This document shows, piece after piece, positions 1 to 58,524 of a stretch of 64,000 nucleotides of DNA. Under the pieces are notes generated by a model that saw only the letters and a list, made by a program, of their open reading frames with translations, had not been told where the DNA came from and made no database searches. Source of the DNA: an uncultured Candidatus Kuenenia sp. (GTDB taxonomy: Bacteria; Planctomycetota; Planctomycetia; Pirellulales; UBA1268); contig CAZJHQ010000003.1 in assembly GCA_964545915.1 (NCBI GenBank), positions 25,582-89,581 of the forward strand. Reading direction: 5' to 3'. The stretch's first letter is position 1; each line of letters opens with the position of its first letter. Both the position numbers and the translations under genes were made by a program.

Positions 1-16
1 CCAGCTCATAGATGAA

Positions 17-385
17 ATGAAAACTCGTGATGGGAATCCTGAGGCCTTTAATAAGGCACTCGAGGAGTTTATGCAGACCTTCGAAACTCGTTGTATTGTT
101 GTTCATCCGGACTTCGCGTTACCCGAGCGTTATTTGGACATTCTTTCGCTCCGTGATGCATGGGTCATCACCAGCACCCGCGGAAACGACTTAGCCAAAA
201 AGAAGTTCCTAGCGCTCATCGCGCGCCTGCGATTGCGTTACGAAAAGCAATCCGATCGAGTGACGGTCAAATGGCTTGATCAAGTAGTCGAAAGCCCCGA
301 GCGTGCAACGGAGAAGCCAGAAGGGTGGGAAAAGCCGGAAAAAAAGCCGGAAAAAAAGCCGGAAAAGGACAGGCGTAATCCTTAA
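17..385 (+). CDS. hypothetical protein, low-GC, PEKK-repeat C-terminus (possibly 5' partial)
   Basis: ATG at 17, but the frame stays open back to base 2, so the start may lie upstream of the window. Bases 1-300 are visibly AT-richer than the rest. The C-terminus PEKKPEKKPEK is encoded by a short AGCCGGAAAAAA tandem and runs into the first copy of the 19-nt junction motif. No family recognised. Confidence 0.4.
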   Translation: MKTRDGNPEAFNKALEEFMQTFETRCIVVHPDFALPERYLDILSLRDAWVITSTRGNDLAKKKFLALIARLRLRYEKQSDRVTVKWLDQVVESPERATEKPEGWEKPEKKPEKKPEKDRRNP

Positions 386-412
386 ACAGCCGGAAAAGGA
401 CAGGCATAATCC
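363..412 (+). repeat. junction motif copies 1 and 2 (AAAAGGACAGGCRTAATCC at 363-381 and 394-412)
   Basis: Direct reading. Copy 1 has G for A at one position; copy 2 matches the consensus. Confidence 0.9.
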
Positions 413-725
413 TTGACGACCGGCCGCGGGAGCCGTAGGATACGGGCGTTCAGTGCCCCCGTATCCTGCAGGAGCCCCCGCGATGACGATGCCCAGGCGG
501 CAACTGGTGGACGTCGCGGTCACGCGCTACTACCACTGCATTTCCCGCTGCGTCAGGCGGGCCTTCCTCTGCGGCGAAGGCGTCACACACCGAAAGGCCT
601 GGATCGAAGCCCGCCTCGAAGTCCTCGCCAAGCACTTCGCCGTCTCCGTCTGCGGCTTCGCAATCCTCGACAACCACCTCCACGTCCTCTGCCGCCTCGA
701 CCCCGGCATCGCCGATGGCTGGAGC
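413..725 (+). mobile_element. 5' fragment (copy a) of the HUH-Y1 element: left-end hairpin plus first ~80 codons of the transposase
   Basis: Near-identical to 1761-2078 of the intact copy. ATG at 483 gives [23 protein letters not shown]...NHLHVLCRLDPGIADGWS, then breaks at another copy of the junction motif. Confidence 0.85.
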
Positions 726-733
726 AAAAACGG

Positions 734-750
734 AAAAGGACAGGCATAAT
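734..750 (+). repeat. junction motif copy 3 (lacks the terminal CC)
   Basis: AAAAGGACAGGCATAAT read directly. Confidence 0.85.
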
Positions 751-820
751 GTGTGCAAGGCAATCTGTTTTCAAGATGAGAGGAGTCCTCTCGTGATCGG
801 TTGACAGGGAAAGAAGCCGG

Positions 821-877
821 AAAAGGACAGGCATAATCCGTGACACCGACGCCGTCCGCCGCGCCACGGCCGCGGTG
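821..877 (+). repeat. junction motif copy 4 plus a 38-nt Rhs piece, duplicate of 1361-1417
   Basis: AAAAGGACAGGCATAATCC followed by GTGACACCGACGCCGTCCGCCGCGCCACGGCCGCGG, the same string as at 1361-1417. Confidence 0.9.
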
Positions 878-883
878 ACACAC

Positions 884-902
884 AAAAGGACAGGCATAAT
901 CC
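884..902 (+). repeat. junction motif copy 5
   Basis: Exact consensus. Confidence 0.9.
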
Positions 903-1100
903 TTGACGACCGGCCGCGGGAGCCGTAGGATACGGGCGTTCAGTGCCCCCGTATCCTGCAGGAGCCCCCGCGATGACGATGCCCAGGCGGCAACTGGTGG
1001 ACGTCGCGGTCACGCGCTACTACCACTGCATTTCCCGCTGCGTCAGGCGGGCCTTCCTCTGCGGCGCGGGCGTCACGCATCACGCACCGCAAGGCCTCGT
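903..1100 (+). mobile_element. 5' fragment (copy b) of the HUH-Y1 element
   Basis: Same left-end sequence and hairpin as 413-; ATG at 973. Similarity to the intact copy decays after about codon 40. Confidence 0.8.
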
Positions 1101-1136
1101 CGCAACGCTCCGGGCTTTCGACAGGCTGGTTGCTGC

Positions 1137-1355
1137 TCAGTAGGTGTCAATCTCGTCCGCCGCCACACCAAGCGTTTTGGCGATCATCCGGCGGGTATTG
1201 TCCCGAACGTGAGTAACCTTGCCCTGTTCGATTCGCCCGATCGTCTTTGCGGACAGCGGTCTAAAGTCTTCTCTGCGGAGCCCTCGTTGTTTCCGAAGGC
1301 GCCGTAGCGATGCGCCGAACGACTTTTCCGCCGCGATCCTCGCTTTGGACTGCAA
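1137..1355 (-). CDS. XRE-family helix-turn-helix protein (72 aa)
   Basis: [33 protein letters not shown] is a typical Cro/C1-type HTH. Wedged between Y1 fragment b and motif copy 6. Confidence 0.7.
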
Positions 1356-1360
1356 GCCGC

Positions 1361-1379
1361 AAAAGGACAGGCATAATCC
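1361..1379 (+). repeat. junction motif copy 6
   Basis: Exact consensus. Confidence 0.9.
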
Positions 1380-1733
1380 GTGACACCGACGCCGTCCGCC
1401 GCGCCACGGCCGCGGGGCTCAACCTCGCCACGGCCACCAGCGCCGCCGTCGCCCCGTTCGCGACCGATTTTTTTGCGTATGACTCCCAAAACCGCGTCAT
1501 CCGCCACGACGTCCAGGGCGCCGGCTGCTCTTCCTGCACCGGCGGCATCGGCACGTTTACCTACTCCTACGCCACCAATCCCAGGCCGGTCCTCGGCAGC
1601 AACCTCGACTGGCGCACAAAAACCACCGAGACCCGCCCCGACGGCACCGAGCGGATCGTCTACTCAAACGCCCGCACCCAGCCGATGCTCGAAGTGATTC
1701 GCACCACCGAAGGGGGCGTCACCAAGCAGCACC
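1380..1733 (+). pseudogene. Rhs/YD-repeat protein fragment
   Basis: Translation FAYDSQNRVIRHD, GTFTYSYATNP and ETRPDGTERIVYSNARTQPMLEV shows YD-repeat periodicity. Bounded on both sides by the junction motif, with no plausible start or natural end. Confidence 0.6.
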
Positions 1734-1752
1734 AAAAGGACAGGCATAATCC
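1734..1752 (+). repeat. junction motif copy 7 (followed by a TAATCCTT duplication)
   Basis: Exact consensus, then TTGTAATCCTTGACGACGG. Confidence 0.9.
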
Positions 1753-1832
1753 TTGTAATCCTTGACGACGGGCCGCGGGAGCCGTAGGATACGGGTGTTC
1801 AGTACCCCCCGAGTCCTGCAGGAGACCCCGCG

Positions 1833-2876
1833 ATGACGATGCCCAGGCGGCAACTGGTGGACGTCGCGGTCACGCGCTACTACCACTGCATTTCCCGCTG
1901 CGTCAGGCGGGCCTTCCTCTGCGGCGAAGGCGTGACGCACCGCAAGGCCTGGATCGAAGCCCGGCTCGAACTCCTCGCCAAGCACTTCGCCGTCTCCGTC
2001 TGCGGCTTCGCGATCCTCGACAACCACCTCCACGTCCTCTGCCGCCTCGACCCCGGCATCGCCGACGGCTGGAGCGACGAAGACGTCGTCCGCCGCTGGA
2101 TCGCCGTCTACCGCCCCTCCTGCCTCGACGTCGATAATCCGGCCACCGTTCAGGCCTGGATCGACAACCAGTGCCAAGACACCGCCCGCGTCGCCCGCTA
2201 CCGGGCGCGGCTCCAGGATCTCGGCTGGTTCATGAAGGCTCTCAAGGAACCGCTGGCCCGACTCGCGAACAAGGAAGACGACTGCAAGGGCACGTTCTGG
2301 GAAGCCCGCTACAAGTCGATCGCCATCCTTGATGAACAAGCCCTGCTCGCGACCTGCGCCTACATCGATTTGAACCCCTTCGCCGCCGGCATCGCCACAA
2401 CCCCCGAAGACGCCCCACACACCTCGATCAAGCAGCGGGTCGATCACGTCCGCGCGAACGGCAACCTCGACACACTCCAAGCCGCCGCCGCAGCCAAGTC
2501 GATCCCTGCCGCCCGAATCGAGTCCGACCTCGAACAATCCCACTGGCTCTGCCCGCTCCAAGATCGCAACGCCAACGGCGCAGCCCGCGAAGGCATGCTG
2601 CCCGGGTTTTCGCTGTCGAGCTATCTCGAACTCGTGGACTGGACGGCCCGGCTCTGCCGCATGGGCAAGCCACGGATCACGCAGGAAGTGACCAGCATCA
2701 TGACGCGGCTCGGCACGAGCCCCGAATACTGGCAGTCACATCTCCAAAAGCTCCTCGGCAAGACCCGCTGGCTCGGCAGCTACTGTGCGACCAGCGCCGA
2801 ACGACTCAAGGCAATCGCCACGAACCGCGGCGTCGATCACGTAGACAACGCCCTGGGCGGCTTGGCCACGGGGTGA
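1833..2876 (+). CDS. HUH-Y1 transposase, IS200-like / REP-associated (RayT-like) family, 347 aa
   Basis: HUH motif in ILDNHLHVLCRL; catalytic-Tyr region GTFWEARYKSIAILDEQALLATCAYIDLNPFAAGIA. Only full-length copy in the window. Confidence 0.8.
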   Translation: MTMPRRQLVDVAVTRYYHCISRCVRRAFLCGEGVTHRKAWIEARLELLAKHFAVSVCGFAILDNHLHVLCRLDPGIADGWSDEDVVRRWIAVYRPSCLDVDNPATVQAWIDNQCQDTARVARYRARLQDLGWFMKALKEPLARLANKEDDCKGTFWEARYKSIAILDEQALLATCAYIDLNPFAAGIATTPEDAPHTSIKQRVDHVRANGNLDTLQAAAAAKSIPAARIESDLEQSHWLCPLQDRNANGAAREGMLPGFSLSSYLELVDWTARLCRMGKPRITQEVTSIMTRLGTSPEYWQSHLQKLLGKTRWLGSYCATSAERLKAIATNRGVDHVDNALGGLATG

Positions 2877-2918
2877 TTCCGCGCAACCGCGGCGGCCTTC
2901 TGCTTGGGATCGTCCGAA

Positions 2919-3323
2919 TTACGGCCGCCAAATCCGTAATCGGCAGTGACGAGCTGCGTGGGCGAAGTCTCGGTCGGTAGTCAGGAGGGTCAGCTGATGT
3001 CGGATGCACAGTTGGGCGAGCAAGGCATCGATCGTTCCGATTTGAACCCCGCCACGGCGGCATGCCGTGCGCAGTGCGGTAGCATCTACATGGTCTTGTC
3101 GATCCGGCTGCACAAGCGGCAGCGATGAAAAGCGGTCAATGATCTGCGCTCGCGCCTTGGGGCCGGAAAAGCCCTGCAGCAATTCCTGGAGAACGAGGCC
3201 TGTGGTCACGACGGTCTGCGACCCGACTAAAGCCTGCTCCAGATACAGAACCTCCGGCTGCGCGCCGACCACATCCCGCCGGAGTGCCAACGACCATACG
3301 CTCGTATCGACCAAAAGCATCAT
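2919..3323 (-). CDS. vapC: PIN-domain toxin VapC
   Basis: MMLLVDTSVW start. Conserved acidic positions at VDTS, LQELLQG, TIDALL and LLTTDRDF. Its ATG overlaps the stop of the upstream antitoxin (ATGA). Confidence 0.85.
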   Translation of the reverse strand: MMLLVDTSVWSLALRRDVVGAQPEVLYLEQALVGSQTVVTTGLVLQELLQGFSGPKARAQIIDRFSSLPLVQPDRQDHVDATALRTACRRGGVQIGTIDALLAQLCIRHQLTLLTTDRDFAHAARHCRLRIWRP

Positions 3324-3523
3324 GAGCGACGCGTGCGTTCCGCCTTGTAGTCGAAGGCGGAATCCCACTCGAGTTTGCCGAGCAGCTCCGCCACCCGCCG
3401 CTGCTCCCGTCGTGCTATGAACTCGTGCAGGGCCTTTGTCACGGCCGCCTTCTTCGTGCGTTCACCACTGACTTGGACGGCTCGCTCCAAGAGATCTGGA
3501 TCGATGCCAAGATTTGTGGCCAT
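3320..3523 (-). CDS. vapB: type II antitoxin VapB (67 aa)
   Basis: MATNLGIDPDLLERAVQVSGERTKKAAVTKALHEFI is typical of small VapB antitoxins. Lies immediately upstream of, and is coupled to, the PIN gene. Confidence 0.8.
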   Translation of the reverse strand: MATNLGIDPDLLERAVQVSGERTKKAAVTKALHEFIARREQRRVAELLGKLEWDSAFDYKAERTRRS

Positions 3524-3694
3524 GTGTGACTCCTTGTGTAAGACTTCACACAAAATACCCGATCCAGTCAAGCGTGCCAAGAACCGGGTTTTGCGGCCCG
3601 TCATCGCGGCTTTTACGCCGCGGCCGACATCGAGCAGTACCCCGGATATCCAGGCACGACGCAGATCGTCTCCCAGCGGACGACGCTTCCTATC

Positions 3695-4048
3695 GTGACC
3701 ACCGCCCAAAACGGCCCCGGCACGGCGGTCGTGACGGATCAGGTGTTCGACGCGGTCGGCCGCGAGATCTGGTCGCGGGACGGCGACGGGTTTTTGCGGT
3801 ACACGCAGTACGACGCCCAGACCGGCGCCGTCGTGAAGAGCATCGTGGACGTAGACACATCCCGCACGAGCGACTTCCAGAATCGGCCATCGGGCTGGGC
3901 CACGCCCGCAGGCGGCGAACTGCACCTCGTGACGACCCACGAAGTGGACCAACTCGGCCGGATCACCAAAGCTGTTGGCGGTGGGCACCAAGCGGATTGG
4001 TCCGCTGGCGTTGCCGAAGAACGAGCGAAAACGAACAGGAAAGCGGGG
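3695..4048 (+). pseudogene. Rhs/YD-repeat protein fragment
   Basis: VFDAVGREIWSRDGDGFLRYTQYDAQTGAVV and THEVDQLGRITKAV are YD repeats. Ends at motif copy 8. Confidence 0.6.
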
Positions 4049-4067
4049 GAAAGGACAGGCGCAATCC
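4049..4067 (+). repeat. junction motif copy 8 (diverged: GAAAGGACAGGCGCAATCC)
   Basis: Followed by TTCAGTCCTTGACGCGACCGCTGGCCGC, a decayed version of the Y1 left end. Confidence 0.7.
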
Positions 4068-4221
4068 TTCAGTCCTTGACGCGACCGCTGGCCGCTCTTC
4101 TGGAGCGGCGGTCTCCGGCCGTCGAATCTGCGGCACGCCCCGCCACCGCGCACGACCGTTTCGCGATCGCCTCCCGTGACCTCAGGCGGGAGGGCTGCGC
4201 CGGCCGCCCGCCCCGCGTGCA

Positions 4222-6891
4222 TCAGGCGGCGCCGCCGGTCTCCCGCTTCCAGCGCCAGGCGGCAGCCGCGAGGAGCGCGAAGTTGAGGAGCAGAAACGCG
4301 AAGAACTCCGTCTGCCCACCCTGCCCGAAGCCATAGGAGTGCAGTCCGGCGCCGAGGAGGAAGTTGACGCCGTACCACGACATGCCGATCACGGCCGCGC
4401 CGATCACGCTCCCGGCCGCCAGGCCGAAGGTGCCGATCCAGCCGGCGTAGCGGCCATGGAGGATGGCGATGTAGGCCAAAAGCGACACCAGAGCCCAGAC
4501 CTCCTTCGGATCCCAGCCCCAGAATCGGCCCCAGGACACGTCGGCCCACAGGCCGCCGAGAATCGTGCCGGCCGCGAGGAGCAACACCGCGACCTGCATC
4601 GCCTTGTAGATGAAGCCCGCCAACGCCGTGCAGGCCTCCGGCGGCTTCCGCTTCCCCACGGCGCCGGCGCCGTAGCGGCCGAGCAGATAGTAGCCCAGCG
4701 ACAGGCAGCCGAGGCCCCAGGCCAGCGCGCCAGCGGCATAGCTCGACACGATCGTCAGCACGTGGATCGTGAGCCAGAAGTTGTCGCGCAGCACCGGCTG
4801 CAGCGGGCTGAACTGCTTGCCTGGAATGGGGAAAAACCAGGCGATGAACGTGCCCGCGAAGGCGACGGCCGTGACCACGAGGCCGAACGAGCGGCGGGCA
4901 TACGTCTCCGGCAACGCCGCGGCGAGATGGCCGCCGCGCCACGACAGCGGCACCACGCCGAGGCCGAGCAACGCGGCCAGGGCGAGCCGCGGCAGATACC
5001 AGGCGGCGGGGGCGAGCATGCCGAGGCCGACCAGCCAGACGACGAGGTTGTTGAGATTCGGCAGCGACCGATCGACGTCGGTCTGCGGCAGCAGGTTGAT
5101 GATCGTGCGGCCGCCGGCGGCGTAGGGAGCCATGGCGAGCACCCACACAACGAGGGCCGTGAGTGCGATTCGCGGCGCCAGCAACGCCCACGAGGCCAGG
5201 CTCCAGCCTCCCGCGCCGAGCAGGCTGCGGCGACGGTCGTCGAGCGGCGTCGCCTCGCCGGGAAGCAGCGCCCCGATGGGCGGCGGCAGGGCCGTCATCC
5301 GCCAGGCATCGGCCGCACCGCGGCGGCAGATCGGCGCCAACAGGAACCCGAGGCCGAGAATCGAGAGGAAGAATGGCACGTAGATCACGGTCTCGTACAT
5401 GTTCGTCACCGGTGCCCAGCCGGTGATCGCCACGCGCTGCGCGAAGGCGAAGGCCGTCCAGCCGATCTCGGCGGCGAGCAGCGCCACACCCAGCCAGAAC
5501 ATCGGCCCGCGGGCCCGGCCGAAGGCCAGCGCGAAGGCGAACAGCGCCAGCAGGCTCAACACCCAGGAGAGGCGGAACGGGTCGCTCTCGTTGTAGCGGA
5601 CTTCGCGGTGGGTGCTGCCCGGGGGCGGATAGGCCGTGTGCCGCAGGAGGTCGGCGTCGATCCGCTCGACCGGGAGCTTTGAACGCAGCGGTTCCACGCC
5701 CGCGCCGAGCGTTCGCAGGGCGGCGGCCAGCCGGCCACTGGCCGTCGCGGCATCGCGATCGCGGTTCTCGCCCGCCGGCTCCTTGGCGGCGGCGGTGAGC
5801 GCGGCGAAGGCGGATCGCACGTCCTCCACCGCCGTTTGTGGGTAAGCGGCGAGCACCTCGGATGGCGCGTCGAGGAGCGTGGCCAGGGCGATCCATGGTG
5901 GGGCGTCATCGTCGGCGTTGCGCTCCGCCTCCAATGGTCCCGCGTGGAGCGCGGGCACGACGAGGAGGCCGCCGCCATCGTCGTACAGCGCCTGGGAGAG
6001 CAGGCTGACCCGTTCGACGAGGCGAGACACGGTCCGCGTGGTGGTGGCGGGCATGTCGGGCACGGCGGCCAGCCGGCCGAGGGCGGCACCCAGGGCCGGA
6101 AGCTTCGCCGTTGCGTCGGCCGTGGCGAACCGCGTGGACTCTCCGACCGCCTCGGCGAGCCCGATGAAGGCGTCGTCCACGGCCCGCACCGCCGCGGCCG
6201 CCTCCTCGCTCCCGCTGGCCGCGACCCGACCGCGGGCCGCCCGCCACGCCCCGCTCGCCTGCTCCAAGAGCCGCACGAATCGCGAGCGGCCCATGTCGGT
6301 CGCCTCCGCCCGGAAGGTCAGCCGCCGCCAGGCCACGAACGCCCGCCACAACTGCTCGACTTTCGCATCCGCTCCCTCGAGGCGGAACTGGCCCCCCTGC
6401 GCCATCGCTTCCCGACGCCGCTCGTCGATAGCCATGAGCCGCGTTCGCAATTTCTCACAGTCTTCGACATCGGCGGGGGCCGCATGCTTGAGCCGCTCCT
6501 TGCCCGACGCGTCGGTGGTGAACAGCGGCAGGTCGAGGAGCGACCGCACTTCCTCGTGCTCGGCGGTCAGGAAGGGAATCTCCTGCCAGGCGGCCGGCCG
6601 GGCCAGCCAATCGAGAAGCAGCTCGTCGGGCTGCCAGCGGACGAGCGCCCCGCCCGGGCCGGTCGCCAGTTTCGGAGCCTGGGCGTGGCAGATCGTGTCG
6701 GCCATCCGCCGGGCGAACGTGTCGAGCGGCATGATGCGGCCGTCTTCGAGCACCGGAATCTCGCGCCAGTCGCGCAGGGCCGAGGACAGCCCCGGCTGCG
6801 GCAGCGCGGATGCGGGCACGGCCGTGATTTCAGGCGTGGCGGCGCCGGCGGTGACCGTCAGGGCGACGACGAGCAGAAAGGCGGGGCGCAT
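4222..6891 (-). CDS. ccsA: cytochrome c biogenesis protein CcsA/ResC with a long N-terminal periplasmic extension
   Basis: Signal peptide MRPAFLLVVALTVTAGA; W-rich heme-handling motif WADVSWGRFWGWDPKEVWA; polytopic C-terminal half. Confidence 0.9.
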   Translation of the reverse strand: MRPAFLLVVALTVTAGAATPEITAVPASALPQPGLSSALRDWREIPVLEDGRIMPLDTFARRMADTICHAQAPKLATGPGGALVRWQPDELLLDWLARPAAWQEIPFLTAEHEEVRSLLDLPLFTTDASGKERLKHAAPADVEDCEKLRTRLMAIDERRREAMAQGGQFRLEGADAKVEQLWRAFVAWRRLTFRAEATDMGRSRFVRLLEQASGAWRAARGRVAASGSEEAAAAVRAVDDAFIGLAEAVGESTRFATADATAKLPALGAALGRLAAVPDMPATTTRTVSRLVERVSLLSQALYDDGGGLLVVPALHAGPLEAERNADDDAPPWIALATLLDAPSEVLAAYPQTAVEDVRSAFAALTAAAKEPAGENRDRDAATASGRLAAALRTLGAGVEPLRSKLPVERIDADLLRHTAYPPPGSTHREVRYNESDPFRLSWVLSLLALFAFALAFGRARGPMFWLGVALLAAEIGWTAFAFAQRVAITGWAPVTNMYETVIYVPFFLSILGLGFLLAPICRRGAADAWRMTALPPPIGALLPGEATPLDDRRRSLLGAGGWSLASWALLAPRIALTALVVWVLAMAPYAAGGRTIINLLPQTDVDRSLPNLNNLVVWLVGLGMLAPAAWYLPRLALAALLGLGVVPLSWRGGHLAAALPETYARRSFGLVVTAVAFAGTFIAWFFPIPGKQFSPLQPVLRDNFWLTIHVLTIVSSYAAGALAWGLGCLSLGYYLLGRYGAGAVGKRKPPEACTALAGFIYKAMQVAVLLLAAGTILGGLWADVSWGRFWGWDPKEVWALVSLLAYIAILHGRYAGWIGTFGLAAGSVIGAAVIGMSWYGVNFLLGAGLHSYGFGQGGQTEFFAFLLLNFALLAAAAWRWKRETGGAA

Positions 6892-39685: not shown

Positions 39686-40018
39686 GGGCGGACCGGCAGG
39701 TGGACGGCAAGAGGAAACAGTCGTACACCATCCGCGGGACGGGGCGGTTCGCCACCAGCCGAGCGCAAGGCTCGGAGGCCGAGCAAACGAATCGGGGGCA
39801 TGCCGAGGCGGCGGCGTGTCGCTTAGGGACGGTGGAGGACTACCTCGCGAACGGGACGACTACCGGCGCTGAAAGCGCCCTGATCGTCACCCGTCGCTTC
39901 GGCGCACAACCGTGCAGTTTTCTGCAAGGGGAGGATCGGGGCGATAGCCCCGACCACCCCCCCCTACAGAGAGAGGCTCGCGAGTCGCTCATCAGCCGGA
40001 AGACCGTTGCCGAAGTGC

Positions 40019-40770
40019 CGGGGGCCAATGGCGTCGTCGAACTCACGCCGTTTGAGTTCCTCGACCGGCTCGCCGCTCTCGTCCCCCCGCCGCGGAAGCA
40101 CCGGCACCGATATCACGGAGTATTCGCGCCGAACCACAAGCTCAGGCGGGCAGTCACGGCGCTGGCGGTCGGGAATGTCGGCCAGCAACGCGAGGCCACG
40201 GCCGGCGGGTATGCGAGCGACGACCATGCCACGGGAGGCTGCTGCGACGCGAATCACTTGACCCTAAAACCCCGCTCGCACGACACGTCACGGATTGCCT
40301 GGGTAAAGCTGATGGCCCGGGTGGGTCAGGAGTTTCCACTCGCGTGCCCGAACTGCAGTGGCGACATCCGCCTGATCGCGTTCATCACGGAGCCGGGCCC
40401 GATCCGGAAGATTCTCACACACCTTGGCGAACCGCTCGACCCGCCGCCAGTCTCACCGGCCCGGGGACCGCCCACCGACTGGGGCGAGCTTGTCCAGGCT
40501 GATGAAGACCGCGAAGCGGTTCAGGGGTCGCCCCACGAGCTGCCCGTGATCGACATCCACAGCCTCTGAGCGGTGCCAGACGCGACCCGCGCATGCCGGG
40601 AAACTGCGAACTGGGACGCGGTCTGCTAGAGACGCGAGAAAAAAGCCACCGAACCGGGTGCGGGAAGTTTCGAGAAACCCGCTCCGGAAGCCCGGGCCGC
40701 TTCTCCCGAAATCCACGAGTCGCTCATCAGCCCGAAAACCGTTCCGGAAGTGCGATTGACCGGACTATCC
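40019..40770 (+). mobile_element. IS91-family 3' fragment: C-terminal ~180 codons of the transposase plus B-type terminus (B2)
   Basis: PGANGVVELTPFEFLDRLAALVPPPRKHRHRYHGVFAPNHKL...ACPNCSGDIRLIAFITEPGPIRKIL...VIDIHSL, stop at 40569. Terminus ...CGATTGACCGGACTATCC ends at 40770. Confidence 0.85.
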
Positions 40771-41125
40771 TTTCACGCCGGTGTTCTTCGTGTCGATGGC
40801 GATCGGCGAGGATTTCCTCGCCGGCTTCGACCTGTGGCTCGTCGTCCTGGTCACGGCCGTCGCCTTCCTGGGAAAGATCTGCGGCGTGTTCATCGGCGGG
40901 CGGATGGCGGGGATGAACGGCCGGCAGTCGCTCGCGGTGGGCTGCGGCCTCAACGCCCGGGGAATCCTCGGCATCGTGATGGCCACGGCCGCCCACGACG
41001 CCCGGCTCATCGATCTGCGGCTGTTCGTGGCCTGCGTGCTGATGTGCGTGCTGACCACCATGGCCGCCGGGCCGGCCTTGCAACTGATCATCGGCAGCGA
41101 CGACCGCGAGCCGGCGCCCGCCTGA
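40771..41125 (+). pseudogene. C-terminal fragment of a cation:proton antiporter (CPA-type)
   Basis: GEDFLAGFDLWLVVLVTAVAFLGKICGVFIGGRMAGMNGRQSLAVGCGLNARG is typical of the last TM helices of Kef/NhaP-type exchangers. Begins exactly at the IS terminus. Confidence 0.65.
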
Positions 41126-57825: not shown

Positions 57826-58524
57826 GGATAAGACGGTCAACGGCGGTTCCGCAATCGATTCGATGGTGTCGGCCAGCCTTTGACCGGGCGTGGGGCCGTC
57901 GCTGATCCAGTGATTGTGTCCGACGTCGCTTCGCCAGACGCGGATAAAGCGGGATGCGGGGGCGATTTTCAGGCTGTGCGCAGACACGCCTCGAATCCGC
58001 CCGTCATGCGGGGGGCCGACCGCGTCGTCGAGCAACCGCTCGATCTCGGCGAGGAAGATCCGGGCGAGAGCGGTGACGGCTGCGGGCCGGTCGGCGAGGA
58101 AGCCCCGCAGCCGCTTGGGCACCGAGATCACCCACTGCCGGACAGGCACCGGCGGGATGACGCGGTCGGCAAGATGCGCCGCCGTCTGGGCCATGTGGCG
58201 GCCCGTGCAGGATGGGCAGACGCCCCTGCCCTTGCAGGAGAAGGCCACGAGAAACCCGTGACCGCAGCGAGTGCAGCGAGCGCGGGCGAAGCCGAAGCAG
58301 AGGATGCCGCAGCCGAGATACTCCCGAAACTCCCCCTCGACGTGTGTCGGGACGGGCCTCTCGCCAAGGCTGCGAGCGGCAAGCCAGGTCTCCAGGTGCC
58401 GGCTGATGAACCGATGAAGCGGCGTCTTCTCGGGACGACGGCGTTCGTAGCGATCCACTCGCCCTGGCCGCCACGGACCAGCATGGAGGCACGCTCGAGG
58501 CCGAGGTGTGCAGAGCGTGACCAC
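57826..58524 (-). mobile_element. internally deleted IS91-family derivative: transposase codons 1-~171 (58012-58524) fused to the 186-nt A-type terminus (A4, 57826-58011)
   Basis: RYERRRPEKTPLHRFISRHLETW...YLGCGILCFGFARARCTRCGHGFLVAFSCKGRGVCPSCTGRHMAQ...VRQWVISVPKRLR is the Zn-binding N-terminal domain. It then continues straight into sequence identical to 53801-53987. Confidence 0.8.

Follow-up and report, generated by a model that had tools for sequence, protein, structure and literature searches.

Organisation of the locus

The stretch of DNA analysed here (the window) comprises 64,000 nucleotides (nt) of contig CAZJHQ010000003.1 of an uncultured Candidatus Kuenenia sp. Its first 4 kb contain pieces of Rhs genes, small genes, and a gene encoding a 347-amino acid (aa) single-tyrosine (Y1) HUH transposase, among which a 19-nt motif is repeated. 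An earlier note on this DNA had listed eight motif copies in the same orientation. The whole window was searched with AAAAGGACAGGCATAATCC at up to 3 mismatches and exactly these eight were found, all on the + strand and starting at 363, 394, 734, 821, 884, 1361, 1734, and 4049, whereas 100 dinucleotide-preserving shuffles gave no match. In the remaining 60 kb no further true motif copy was found, also with relaxed cores. The GGACAGGCA at 58140 was inside a coding sequence and looks like a chance occurrence. In our study, we found that this mosaic consists of stacked partial copies anchored at the element's end, together with captured fragments, and that it is located on the 3' edge of an Rhs locus.

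Repeat analysis and tblastn placed the motif together with the left end of the Y1 gene at 394-725, 884-~1097, and 1734-2876. The motif joined to 38 nt of Rhs was duplicated at 821-877 and 1361-1417 (98% identity across 62 nt). Both sets of blocks, and a decayed fourth left end after 4049, agree with the earlier description. That description had every block begin exactly at the motif, which did not hold, as the duplicated units usually reach a few bases 5' of it, namely AGCCGG in copies 1, 2, and 4 and GACACAC in copy 5. It had also called the sequence upstream of each copy different. This sequence consists largely of A-rich micro-tandem filler, e.g., (AAAAAAAGCCGG)n at 331-362. Copy 3 at 734 (...CATAATGT) is not a damaged copy; it starts a separate conserved element that is also present in another species (L064; loci are cited here by their L numbers).

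The array is not an assembly artefact, because the contig L002, which comes from another sample, matches window 1-5004 with 99.86% identity and zero gaps. A complete Pseudoalteromonas replicon was found to hold an array of the same kind. The motif itself was unstructured and, as noted before, not palindromic (folding z = -0.66). The Rfam search of window 1-5000 at E-values up to 1 returned no match. As a promoter the motif was rejected: an upstream hexamer was present only at the copy at 394, at chance level, and the promoter-like site of the unit is just inside the motif. Sigma-54-like and tRNA-end-like readings were dropped after inspection by eye, with no consistent partners found. A literature search for the motif and its GGACACCCAC core returned primers only; a mention outside the searchable literature and databases is possible.

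Position of the motif relative to the Y1 gene

The motif is very probably the cognate end of the 347-aa Y1 gene unit and its outermost conserved sequence. A metagenome scan with the protein alignment yielded 80 loci of 35-98% identity, and 69 of them were screened for the motif. In 34 of the 69 loci at least one motif was found on the gene strand, no more than 800 nt 5' of the start, and in none was one found on the opposite strand. Nearly all of these 34 loci encode homologues at least ~53% identical, and the most copies in one array was 11. The core GGACAGGC(A/G) begins 77-103 nt before the ATG on the gene strand in 53 distinct contexts close to the gene, the proteins being 35-100% identical. 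The four A nucleotides before the core were 77-96% conserved and the GG before them 40-53%, with nothing conserved further 5'. In relatives of 63-65% identity the motif was far better conserved than the rest of the leader.

A promoter-like site, TTGACG-N17-TAGGAT, is present 1-2 nt past the motif in all three left ends of the window, and a promoter scan of the region gave 6 sites against 0.3 expected. When eight full Y1 copies from different species were aligned, nucleotide homology stopped at the Y1 stop codon and no conserved right end was found in the window's clade. The position of the motif, the leader, and the limits of homology therefore define a conserved unit of motif, promoter/leader, and gene, which runs from (GG)AAAAGGACAGGCATAATC over the promoter 1-2 nt further on to the stop codon. 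The exact 19-mer was found in 35 stretches of species-representative genomes. From their contexts, read by eye, ~27 belong to metagenome-assembled genomes (MAGs) of Planctomycetota and ~7 look like chance in unrelated phyla. The Y1 protein family is large, with 4,621 proteins at E-values up to 1e-5. The motif is the conserved left end of a widespread, uncharacterised Y1 family, and the observation is more general than the window. The first of three readings in the earlier note, the extreme left end of an element like RayT (transposase associated with repetitive extragenic palindromes, REPs) or IS200 that was abortively copied in an Rhs locus, is supported by this fixed distance to the Y1 gene at dozens of loci. 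It is further backed by the dominance of left-anchored truncated copies and by inverted terminal repeats in distant relatives, both described below.

Some neighbouring observations concern the same unit. In L084, the Y1 gene is split by an insertion of ~1.4 kb (1813-2112 and 3554-4376), and its left end has no motif; unrelated sequence adjoins exactly at TTGACG. The locus L010 (1595-3262), binned as Candidatus Kuenenia, contained no Y1 gene; the exact motif is followed there by a divergent left-end-like leader that passes directly into Rhs-like repeats. In three genomes (L001 8433-8610, L039 ~2300 on the - strand, and L035 ~500), the motif precedes a further family of payloads. This payload reads TTCGGAAATCC(G/A)GGGCGGGAGCCGATTTCTGCGACG..., shares GCGGGAGCCG with the Y1 left end, and continues into a protein-coding fragment (...GQGTVTIPDGKSSVS...).

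Repeated edges, truncated copies, and turnover

Nearly every motif copy was found to have a stutter on its 5' side, in which a locus-specific flank of 4-12 nt is repeated 2-4 times together with the first motif bases. The stutter before copy 1 of the window is AAAGCCGG AAAAAAAGCCGG AAAAAAAGCCGG. Flank units elsewhere included AACGG, ACTGA, ACACGAT, AATCC, and GACACAC, followed by AAAA, AAAAGG, AAAAGGAC, or longer pieces of the motif, and the mode of the repeated flank length was 8-10 nt. In 77 of 208 distinct contexts (37%), the 5-mer to the left of the A-run appeared again within 25 nt, compared with 4.9% at random positions and 5.7% at other A-runs. Duplications were also present at the 3' edge. 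In the window this edge reads ATAATCC TTG TAATCC TTG ACG, with the 9-nt unit TAATCCTTG doubled, and units of 8-15 nt were found elsewhere.

The lengths of truncated copies were taken from blastn over all loci with one full left end and gene as the query, since an ungapped prefix measure was unsuitable owing to indels. About 30 distinct copies have their start at the motif and break off after 25-495 nt, in no case because the contig ends there. Truncation at the 5' side was found in only four copies, among them at least one (L084) in which the gene is split by an unrelated insertion. Left-anchored, 3'-truncated copies thus outnumber 5'-truncated copies by about 7:1. Half of the anchored copies lead directly into filler and the next motif. 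The array of L083 contained 11 copies in 530 nt, with the motif followed by 9, 27... nt of left end, and in the arrays of L083, L077, and L070 the motif, 5-30 nt of left end, and the flank unit are stacked.

Turnover of the array seems to be current, because arrays differ between samples that carry an identical protein. Downstream of two proteins found identical in many samples (P0044 and P0012) the genes are constant. The arrays upstream vary in unit number, in (CA)n length, and even in the upstream gene, and the contigs often break there. The window is homologous to the haplotypes L003, L004, and L005 from 877 onward, a point 7 nt upstream of copy 5, and to the haplotype L001 from 1756 onward, inside the copy-7 stutter. 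To the left of these two breakpoints the strains carry different Rhs C-terminal/immunity modules; the Rhs core of L004 is 87% identical to that of L002 up to the tip and unrelated beyond it.

Upstream of the P0012 gene in L054, L055, L057, L059, and L060, a (CA)n tract separates a truncated Y1 copy from the next motif. The tract clearly varies in length between samples, which is unusual for a genome of ~63% GC. In L001 (7330-7385 and 7860-7905), successive small open reading frames (ORFs) past the Rhs end in a shared segment of ~45 nt (...gttgcgagaa(c/t)gg.ttgaactgaagag...), which may be a cassette-boundary repeat distinct from the motif.

Variant cores and inverted ends in relatives

Homologues of 35-52% identity were found in other phyla, in genomes of 38-65% GC. 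They contained no GGACAGGCA; the cores GGACACCCA(C), GGACATCCA, GGACATCCACA, GACACCCA, or GGCCACCCAC were present, 4-9 nt before a TTGACA-like box. A stuttered flank X was found in these relatives too, X being AAATTCGA in L127, AGTAACAAAG in L126, and AAAGGAACGCA in L101. In 16 loci (36-75% identity) an inverted motif copy was found 198-273 nt after the stop, in 13 of the 16 at 198-231 nt. Terminal inverted repeats of 16-18 nt bracket the gene in these loci, e.g., GGACAGGCAATGTAAACC / GGACATGCAATGTGAACC in L101. Stutter and extra end copies were present on the outer side of both ends. In the finished chromid of Pseudoalteromonas piscicida the left end is (TTAAATTGC)n followed by GACACCCACCACTAAT, and the right end is (GAAAATAAGAG)n followed by two end copies. 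Where the copies in two Pseudoalteromonas were compared, their homology started at the core. The 19-nt motif acts as a part of the element, and no direct repeat or target-site duplication was found around the two-ended relatives when their flanks were compared by eye.

In the window's clade (at least 80% identity) no inverted copy was present within 900 nt downstream. The clade is therefore called one-ended, its right end being lost. Small inverted motif pairs without a gene were found in L036 (64-nt hairpin, z = -5.9), L029, and L019, and these solo pairs resemble miniature derivatives of the element.

Two other sequences were found behind Y1 genes. In the window, a hairpin CCGAATTACGG/CCGTAATCGG at 2908-2940, with ...AAATCC joined to GTAATCGG, is present just 3' of the Y1 stop, where it also overlaps the vapC end. 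Another tail (...CTGACGAATCCGTTCGAA...), 100-150 nt long, follows the Y1 stop in L022, L038, and L054. Both may be right-end remnants, and neither could be generalised as a conserved right end.

The Y1 protein

The 347-aa protein matched the Pfam family Y1_Tnp (PF01797) with 30.1 bits at a cut-off of 23, which places it in the HUH Y1 superfamily. No other family was matched, and a single conserved tyrosine motif was present. The residues H65, H67, and Y177 (YIDLNP / YxxxNP) were invariant among 28 homologues. The protein contains NHLH, FWE, and YIDLNP, with 110-112 residues from H65/H67 to Y177, followed by a long C-terminal tail. By this signature, it would be a member of subclass 2.3/2.1 of the TnpA-Y1 proteins. 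The NCBIfam model REP_Tyr_transpos (NF047646) scored 39.2 bits, against a cut-off of 80, with residues 129-196 alone matching. The nearest relatives in finished replicons were found in Alteromonadales (34-38% identity). The structure predicted from the 28-sequence alignment had a mean predicted local distance difference test score (pLDDT) of 58, and the C-terminal third was below 50.

Features of the first 7 kb and neighbouring genes

The coordinates of the features are listed in Table 1.

Table 1. Features in the first 7 kb of the window.
Feature	Position	Strand	Remarks
ORF with C-terminal KPEKKPEKKPEK encoded by the stutter at 331..362	17-385	+	from the ORF list
5' stutter, AAAGCCGG + 2x AAAAAAAGCCGG	331..362	+	adjoins motif copy 1; sequence, repeat family D2
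Motif copy 1, AAAAGGACAGGCGTAATCC, 1 mismatch	363..381	+	then 12-nt spacer TTAAACAGCCGG repeating the flank GCCGG
Motif copy 2 + left end + first 83 Y1 codons	394..725	+	repeat families D1 and D4; left-anchored, 3'-truncated copy, 96% identity to the resident Y1 gene; then filler AAAAACGG
Motif variant ...CATAATGT + 68 nt of "P2" + filler AAAGAAGCCGG	734..820	+	
Motif copy 4 + first 38 nt of Rhs fragment A + filler TGACACAC	821..883	+	family D6; Rhs part is a truncated copy of 1361-1417
Motif copy 5 + left end + ~36 first Y1 codons	884..1097	+	Y1 piece (...caaggcct) joins the helix-turn-helix gene block (cgtcgcaacg); same junction in L005, L012, L071
Captured 72-aa helix-turn-helix (HTH_31) gene	1137..1355	-	
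Motif copy 6 + Rhs fragment A	1361..1733	+	1402-1728 matches L002 1-327 (intact upstream Rhs gene, 5' region) at 93% DNA identity
Motif copy 7 + 3' stutter, 9-nt unit TAATCCTTG duplicated	1734..1761	+	
Leader of the resident gene	1762..1832	+	TTGACG-N17-TAGGAT; block TAGGATACGGG(C/T)GTTCAGTAC; GGAG before ATG
Complete 347-aa Y1 HUH gene	1833..2876	+	HUH motif NHLH (H65, H67), tyrosine motif YIDLNP (Y177)
vapC (2919-3323) and vapB (3320-3523), toxin-antitoxin pair	2919..3523	-	constant downstream neighbours in this population
Rhs fragment B	3638..3977	+	paralogous copy of L002 ~725-996
A/G-rich filler (…GAACGAGCGAAAACGAACAGGAAAGCGGGG) + decayed motif copy 8 (4049-4067) + decayed left end (TTCAGTCCTTGACGCGACCGCTGGCCGC…)	3978..4130	+	oldest end copy; abuts the ccsA-like gene
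ccsA-like gene	4222-6891	-	

An intact Rhs gene is present immediately upstream of the window, and both Rhs fragments (~1380-1733 and ~3638-3977) are paralogous copies of its 5' part. Fragments A and B are not contiguous; motif copy 7, the Y1 gene, and vapBC take the place of ~390 nt of the ancestral gene. The ORF at 17-385 is the C-terminal part of a 360-aa gene that follows Rhs in L002, and because of this position its product may be an immunity protein. The ORF runs through the stutter and motif copy 1 and ends in ...KPEKKPEKKPEKDRRNP at the stop. It reads into the array, which therefore provides its last ~17 codons and the stop codon.

The P2 element (window 734-820 and L064 2671-~3000) starts with AAAAGG(A/G)CA(G/C)GCATAATGT, continues as GTGCAAGGCAATCTGTTTTCAAGATGAG.GGAG..CCTCTCGTGATCGG.TGACAGG, and was found both in the window and in a species with a Y1 of just 69% identity. 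In L064 it is longer and is present between an Rhs immunity gene and the Y1 gene. It contains a small hairpin (GAGAGGA/CCTCTC) and, on the - strand, a promoter-like TTGAAA-N17-CATTAT (774-746) that overlaps the motif. No Rfam match was found for the window part of P2. The composite of motif, ~206 nt of Y1 left end, and helix-turn-helix gene was found with an identical junction in several MAGs and metagenomes (window 884-1355, L012 1859-1400 on the - strand, L005, and L071 from 2779). It seems to be inherited or moved as a unit. In L012 the helix-turn-helix gene is followed by ~1 kb more, which is absent from the window.

Further away, window 39826-40780 contains a short Rhs fragment with 85% aa identity to residues 1845-1871 of the L001 Rhs protein. 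It is followed by an apparent C-terminal part of an IS91-type transposase with the end ...GGACTATCCTTTCAC. This IS91 material, to which the earlier note had pointed, is unrelated to the motif.

Origin of the array

The data show the membership of the motif in the gene unit, the anchoring and polarity of the copies, the stutter, and the turnover in the population. They require a process with a fixed start at or just outside the motif, which proceeds inward on the motif-bearing strand and has a variable stop. The encoded HUH enzyme would be the simplest agent, since its catalytic residues are invariant. The explanation as a whole, in which a RayT-like Y1 unit, mobile now or formerly, has the motif as its terminal recognition sequence and the array was built by end-anchored copying, has in our view about an even chance of being right. 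For the mechanism by which it could be built, nick-primed abortive copying, our preference is tentative and falls somewhat short of that. The Y1 enzyme as the nicking agent, the position of the nick, and the resolution of the copies are what we infer.

In this mechanism, the Y1 enzyme would bind the GGACAGGCA core and nick the motif-bearing strand at the A-run or up to ~12 nt outside it. The freed 3'-OH would be extended into the element while the original strand is displaced, and synthesis would halt after 4 to several hundred bases. The displaced 5' end would then be resealed to the extended 3' end by the enzyme, or the polymerase would switch template, in both cases beside the same end. Resealing would give partial end copies without intervening flank, as in L030, L043, and L053, and template switching would give copies with flank units, filler, or captured DNA. 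Each event would place one more left-anchored, 3'-truncated copy immediately 5' of the resident end, sometimes together with a few flank bases. Occasional template switches would import nearby DNA, such as the Rhs pieces and the helix-turn-helix gene, and short tandem units could later grow or shrink by ordinary slippage. Formally, the scheme amounts to inserting a truncated copy next to the resident end, together with a short flank duplication of variable extent, and so resembles what is reported for Replitron-1 (PMC10288648) and the partial duplication driven by Rep at AAVS1.

Several points weigh against this explanation. The link between protein and motif is drawn from sequence, and a DNA-binding domain for the core is only assumed, the C-terminal 100 residues having a pLDDT below 50. 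When the C-terminal 150 residues from three homologues were compared with Pfam at E-values up to 10, nothing was found, and a PDB sequence search with the protein profile gave no relatives; a DnaA-box-like helix-turn-helix domain reading the core is a guess. Known Y1 transposases recognise hairpins. A hairpin GGATACGGG/CCCGTATCC is present in two fragment copies of the left end (z = -2.6), but over 18 left ends it was not conserved, with essentially no covariation and a consensus fold of -1.3 kcal/mol. The repeated flank differs between loci, so the nick position would have to depend on distance and not on sequence, and this would be uncommon among HUH nucleases. Of the truncated copies, about half adjoin unrelated DNA and not a new motif, a pattern that deletion could also yield. 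The two truncated Y1 copies of the window are 94-96% identical to the resident gene (4-6% diverged) and match each other at 97-99%, their first 54 nt being identical. They resemble each other more than the resident gene, and are therefore not recent copies of it. Finally, fork stalling near a tightly bound protein could give anchored tandem duplications without nicking.

This last possibility can be extended to an account without catalysis, which we consider not very likely. The motif would be a tight binding site, for example an operator, at which replication forks stall; slippage of the nascent strand and template switching would then produce the stutters and partial duplications, and homologous recombination between the 19-nt copies would follow. 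The motif is placed like an operator, directly upstream of the -35 box, and tandem duplications of 8-15 nt straddle both of its edges. The lengths of (CA)n and (AAAG)n tracts vary between samples as in ordinary microsatellites, and L060 differs from L054 by the loss of one motif-to-motif unit. Stalling of this kind does not, however, predict the ~7:1 excess of copies that run from a fixed point outside the motif up to 495 nt inward, nor the equal behaviour on the outer side of both inverted ends. The first step of slippage also needs microhomology, which the GC-rich flanks seldom offer.

A different use of the same enzyme was considered in an integron-like exchange. The Y1 enzyme would cut at two motifs, circles of payload and motif would be excised and reinserted at the gene-proximal motif, and the array would be a cassette store that includes Rhs tip/immunity modules. 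In its favour, motif copies bound haplotype-specific segments, and L002 and L004 differ in their Rhs C-terminal/immunity modules just left of the array. In addition, all copies are co-oriented with the enzyme gene at the fixed edge of a variable array, and at six or more independent loci (window, L013, L026, L053, L064, and L070/L071) an Rhs gene is found upstream of the Y1 gene or the motif array. The payloads do not fit, being mostly truncated copies of the enzyme gene or scraps of 5-30 nt, and the Rhs pieces in the window's array are N-terminal and not toxin tips. Moreover, the breakpoints take in variable flank bases and filler with no precise crossover point, and many loci have no Rhs gene. 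Integrons have an IntI tyrosine recombinase, an attI site, and attC sites with R''/R' inverted cores; no such recombinase gene was found in 1-5500, and the motif is not an imperfect inverted repeat. We consider such an exchange quite unlikely.

The second reading of the earlier note, a cleavage/joining site for assembling cassettes or shuffling Rhs tips, could go either way. Strain breakpoints do fall at motif copies, with different Rhs tip/immunity modules to their left. The payloads, on the other hand, are for the most part truncated copies of the element and N-terminal pieces of Rhs and not intact cassettes, and Rhs is absent from many loci.

It is very unlikely that the motif is a pre-existing host repeat of planctomycetes, 3' of which an IS200-like element always lands, as IS608 lands 3' of TTAC. 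The junction of ...ATAATCC with TTGACG is ~26 nt before a hairpin in some copies, a geometry like that of IS608, and motif copies without a nearby Y1 gene were found in L009, L019, L025, L029, and L036. The hairpin is not conserved, however, and solo inverted pairs such as that of L036 look like miniature derivatives of the element. A host target would not vary with the protein clade, as the motif does from GGACAGGCA to GGACACCCA with clade-specific 3' halves, or form inverted terminal repeats around the gene. The copy number of the motif is also low, with none in the 64-kb window outside the array.

An IS91-type terminus remnant, which was the third reading of the earlier note, or an assembly artefact is extremely unlikely: IS91-like transposase fragments with ...CTATCCTTT are present near 39.9-40.8 kb and short-read assemblers can be misled by repeats, but the motif accompanies a Y1 and not a two-tyrosine (Y2) gene in loci without IS91, the similarity is ~5 nt, independent samples give identical arrays, and the architecture is present in complete genomes.

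End-anchored copying could also be carried further. The Y1 clade might be a resident copying machine and no conventional insertion sequence. Its enzyme would nick next to the terminal motif, and abortive strand-displacement synthesis with template switching would keep rebuilding the DNA just upstream, so that neighbouring genes are captured and reshuffled. In planctomycetes it would be lodged recurrently at the 3' edges of Rhs loci and aid the exchange of toxin tips and immunity genes between strains, all of which we regard as speculative and unlikely. If true, it would be a bacterial analogue of the target-site duplication driven by adeno-associated virus (AAV) Rep, or an integron built on HUH chemistry. 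The recurrent adjacency to Rhs may bear on how Rhs loci diversify, and the Y1/motif array may have a role in it. The turnover of the arrays could be followed by long reads.

Comparison with known systems

The element behaves most like a one-ended HUH element. With IS200/IS605 elements (IS608) it shares a single-tyrosine HUH transposase, strictly orientation-specific ends, and, as far as a comparison of flanks by eye can show, the absence of target-site duplication around whole elements. It differs from them in having no conserved subterminal hairpins, which were found at neither end in the window's clade, and in the inverted-repeat ends of its two-ended members. The conserved terminus of 16-19 nt contrasts with a target of 4-5 nt and a guide. 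The earlier note had drawn this contrast aptly, the motif being a part of the element and not a target. Tandem partial end copies are a further difference. To our knowledge, stutter and stacks of left-anchored truncated copies form a footprint that has not been described for IS200/IS605 or REP systems. The footprint points to a copying step (nick-primed synthesis) in a family thought only to cut and rejoin single strands.

REPtrons likewise contain a Y1 gene, often with constant downstream neighbours, and several copies of a short cognate repeat. Inverted flanking copies in many relatives and small inverted pairs elsewhere (L036, L029, and L019) are also alike. The repeat found here is, however, no palindrome with a GTAG foot, and it is low-copy and clustered instead of dispersed in hundreds. 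The arrays are direct and gene-oriented and contain truncated copies of the gene itself, and the model score is 39 bits against 80. The palindromic dispersed REP of REPtrons and RAYTs (REP-associated tyrosine transposases) is thus absent, and inverted flanking is present only in the more distant relatives.

Copying from one defined end, imprecise termination, and capture of adjacent DNA are shared with IS91/ISCR, Helitrons, and Replitron-1. The Y2 Rep-type transposase of IS91/ISCR and Helitrons is not what was found here, where the protein matches Y1_Tnp and has a single tyrosine motif. These two-tyrosine systems also normally over-run their terminus rather than stop early. We know of no IS91/ISCR, Helitron, or Replitron that stacks truncated copies beside its own end. 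A further likeness is found in AAV Rep at AAVS1, where an HUH enzyme binds a duplex motif and nicks nearby, and where nick-primed synthesis with template switching gives partial duplications anchored to the nick and captures foreign DNA. AAV Rep is viral, acts in a eukaryotic host, and has a helicase domain, and the likeness is a mechanistic analogy only. Replitron-1 was reported to have a Y1 Rep, "fuzzy" ends, and target duplications of variable length (PMC10288648). Replitrons differ from the element described here in having direct terminal repeats and in being eukaryotic.

In its signature, the protein is closest to TnpA-Y1 subclass 2.3/2.1 (RAYT group 1), with which it shares NHxH, WE, Y(I/V)DLNP, and 110-112 residues between the HUH histidines and the tyrosine. 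Subclass 2.3 proteins have a median of ~325 aa, NHYH, WE, YVDLNP, ~110 residues from HuH to Y (a 55-aa insert), and a specific C-terminal domain, and this subclass prevails in Alteromonadales (PMC6006769). Quentin et al. (2018) found no REP-like sequences beside genes of subclasses 2.1 and 2.3 in automatic and manual searches (PMC6006769). Bertels et al. (2017) found that 16-mers flanking group 1 were only modestly repeated (PMC5581495). These surveys left RAYT group 1 and subclasses 2.1/2.3, the largest groups, without cognate DNA and with their function open (PMC6006769, PMC5581495). In contrast to these reports, the clade as a whole was found here to have a conserved terminal motif that is not a palindrome, that often recurs as an inverted copy at the other end, and that is accompanied by stutter arrays. 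With its core GGACA-SS-CA, its fixed position, its inverted-repeat arrangement, and its clade variants, this terminal motif provides a testable substrate for those enzymes.

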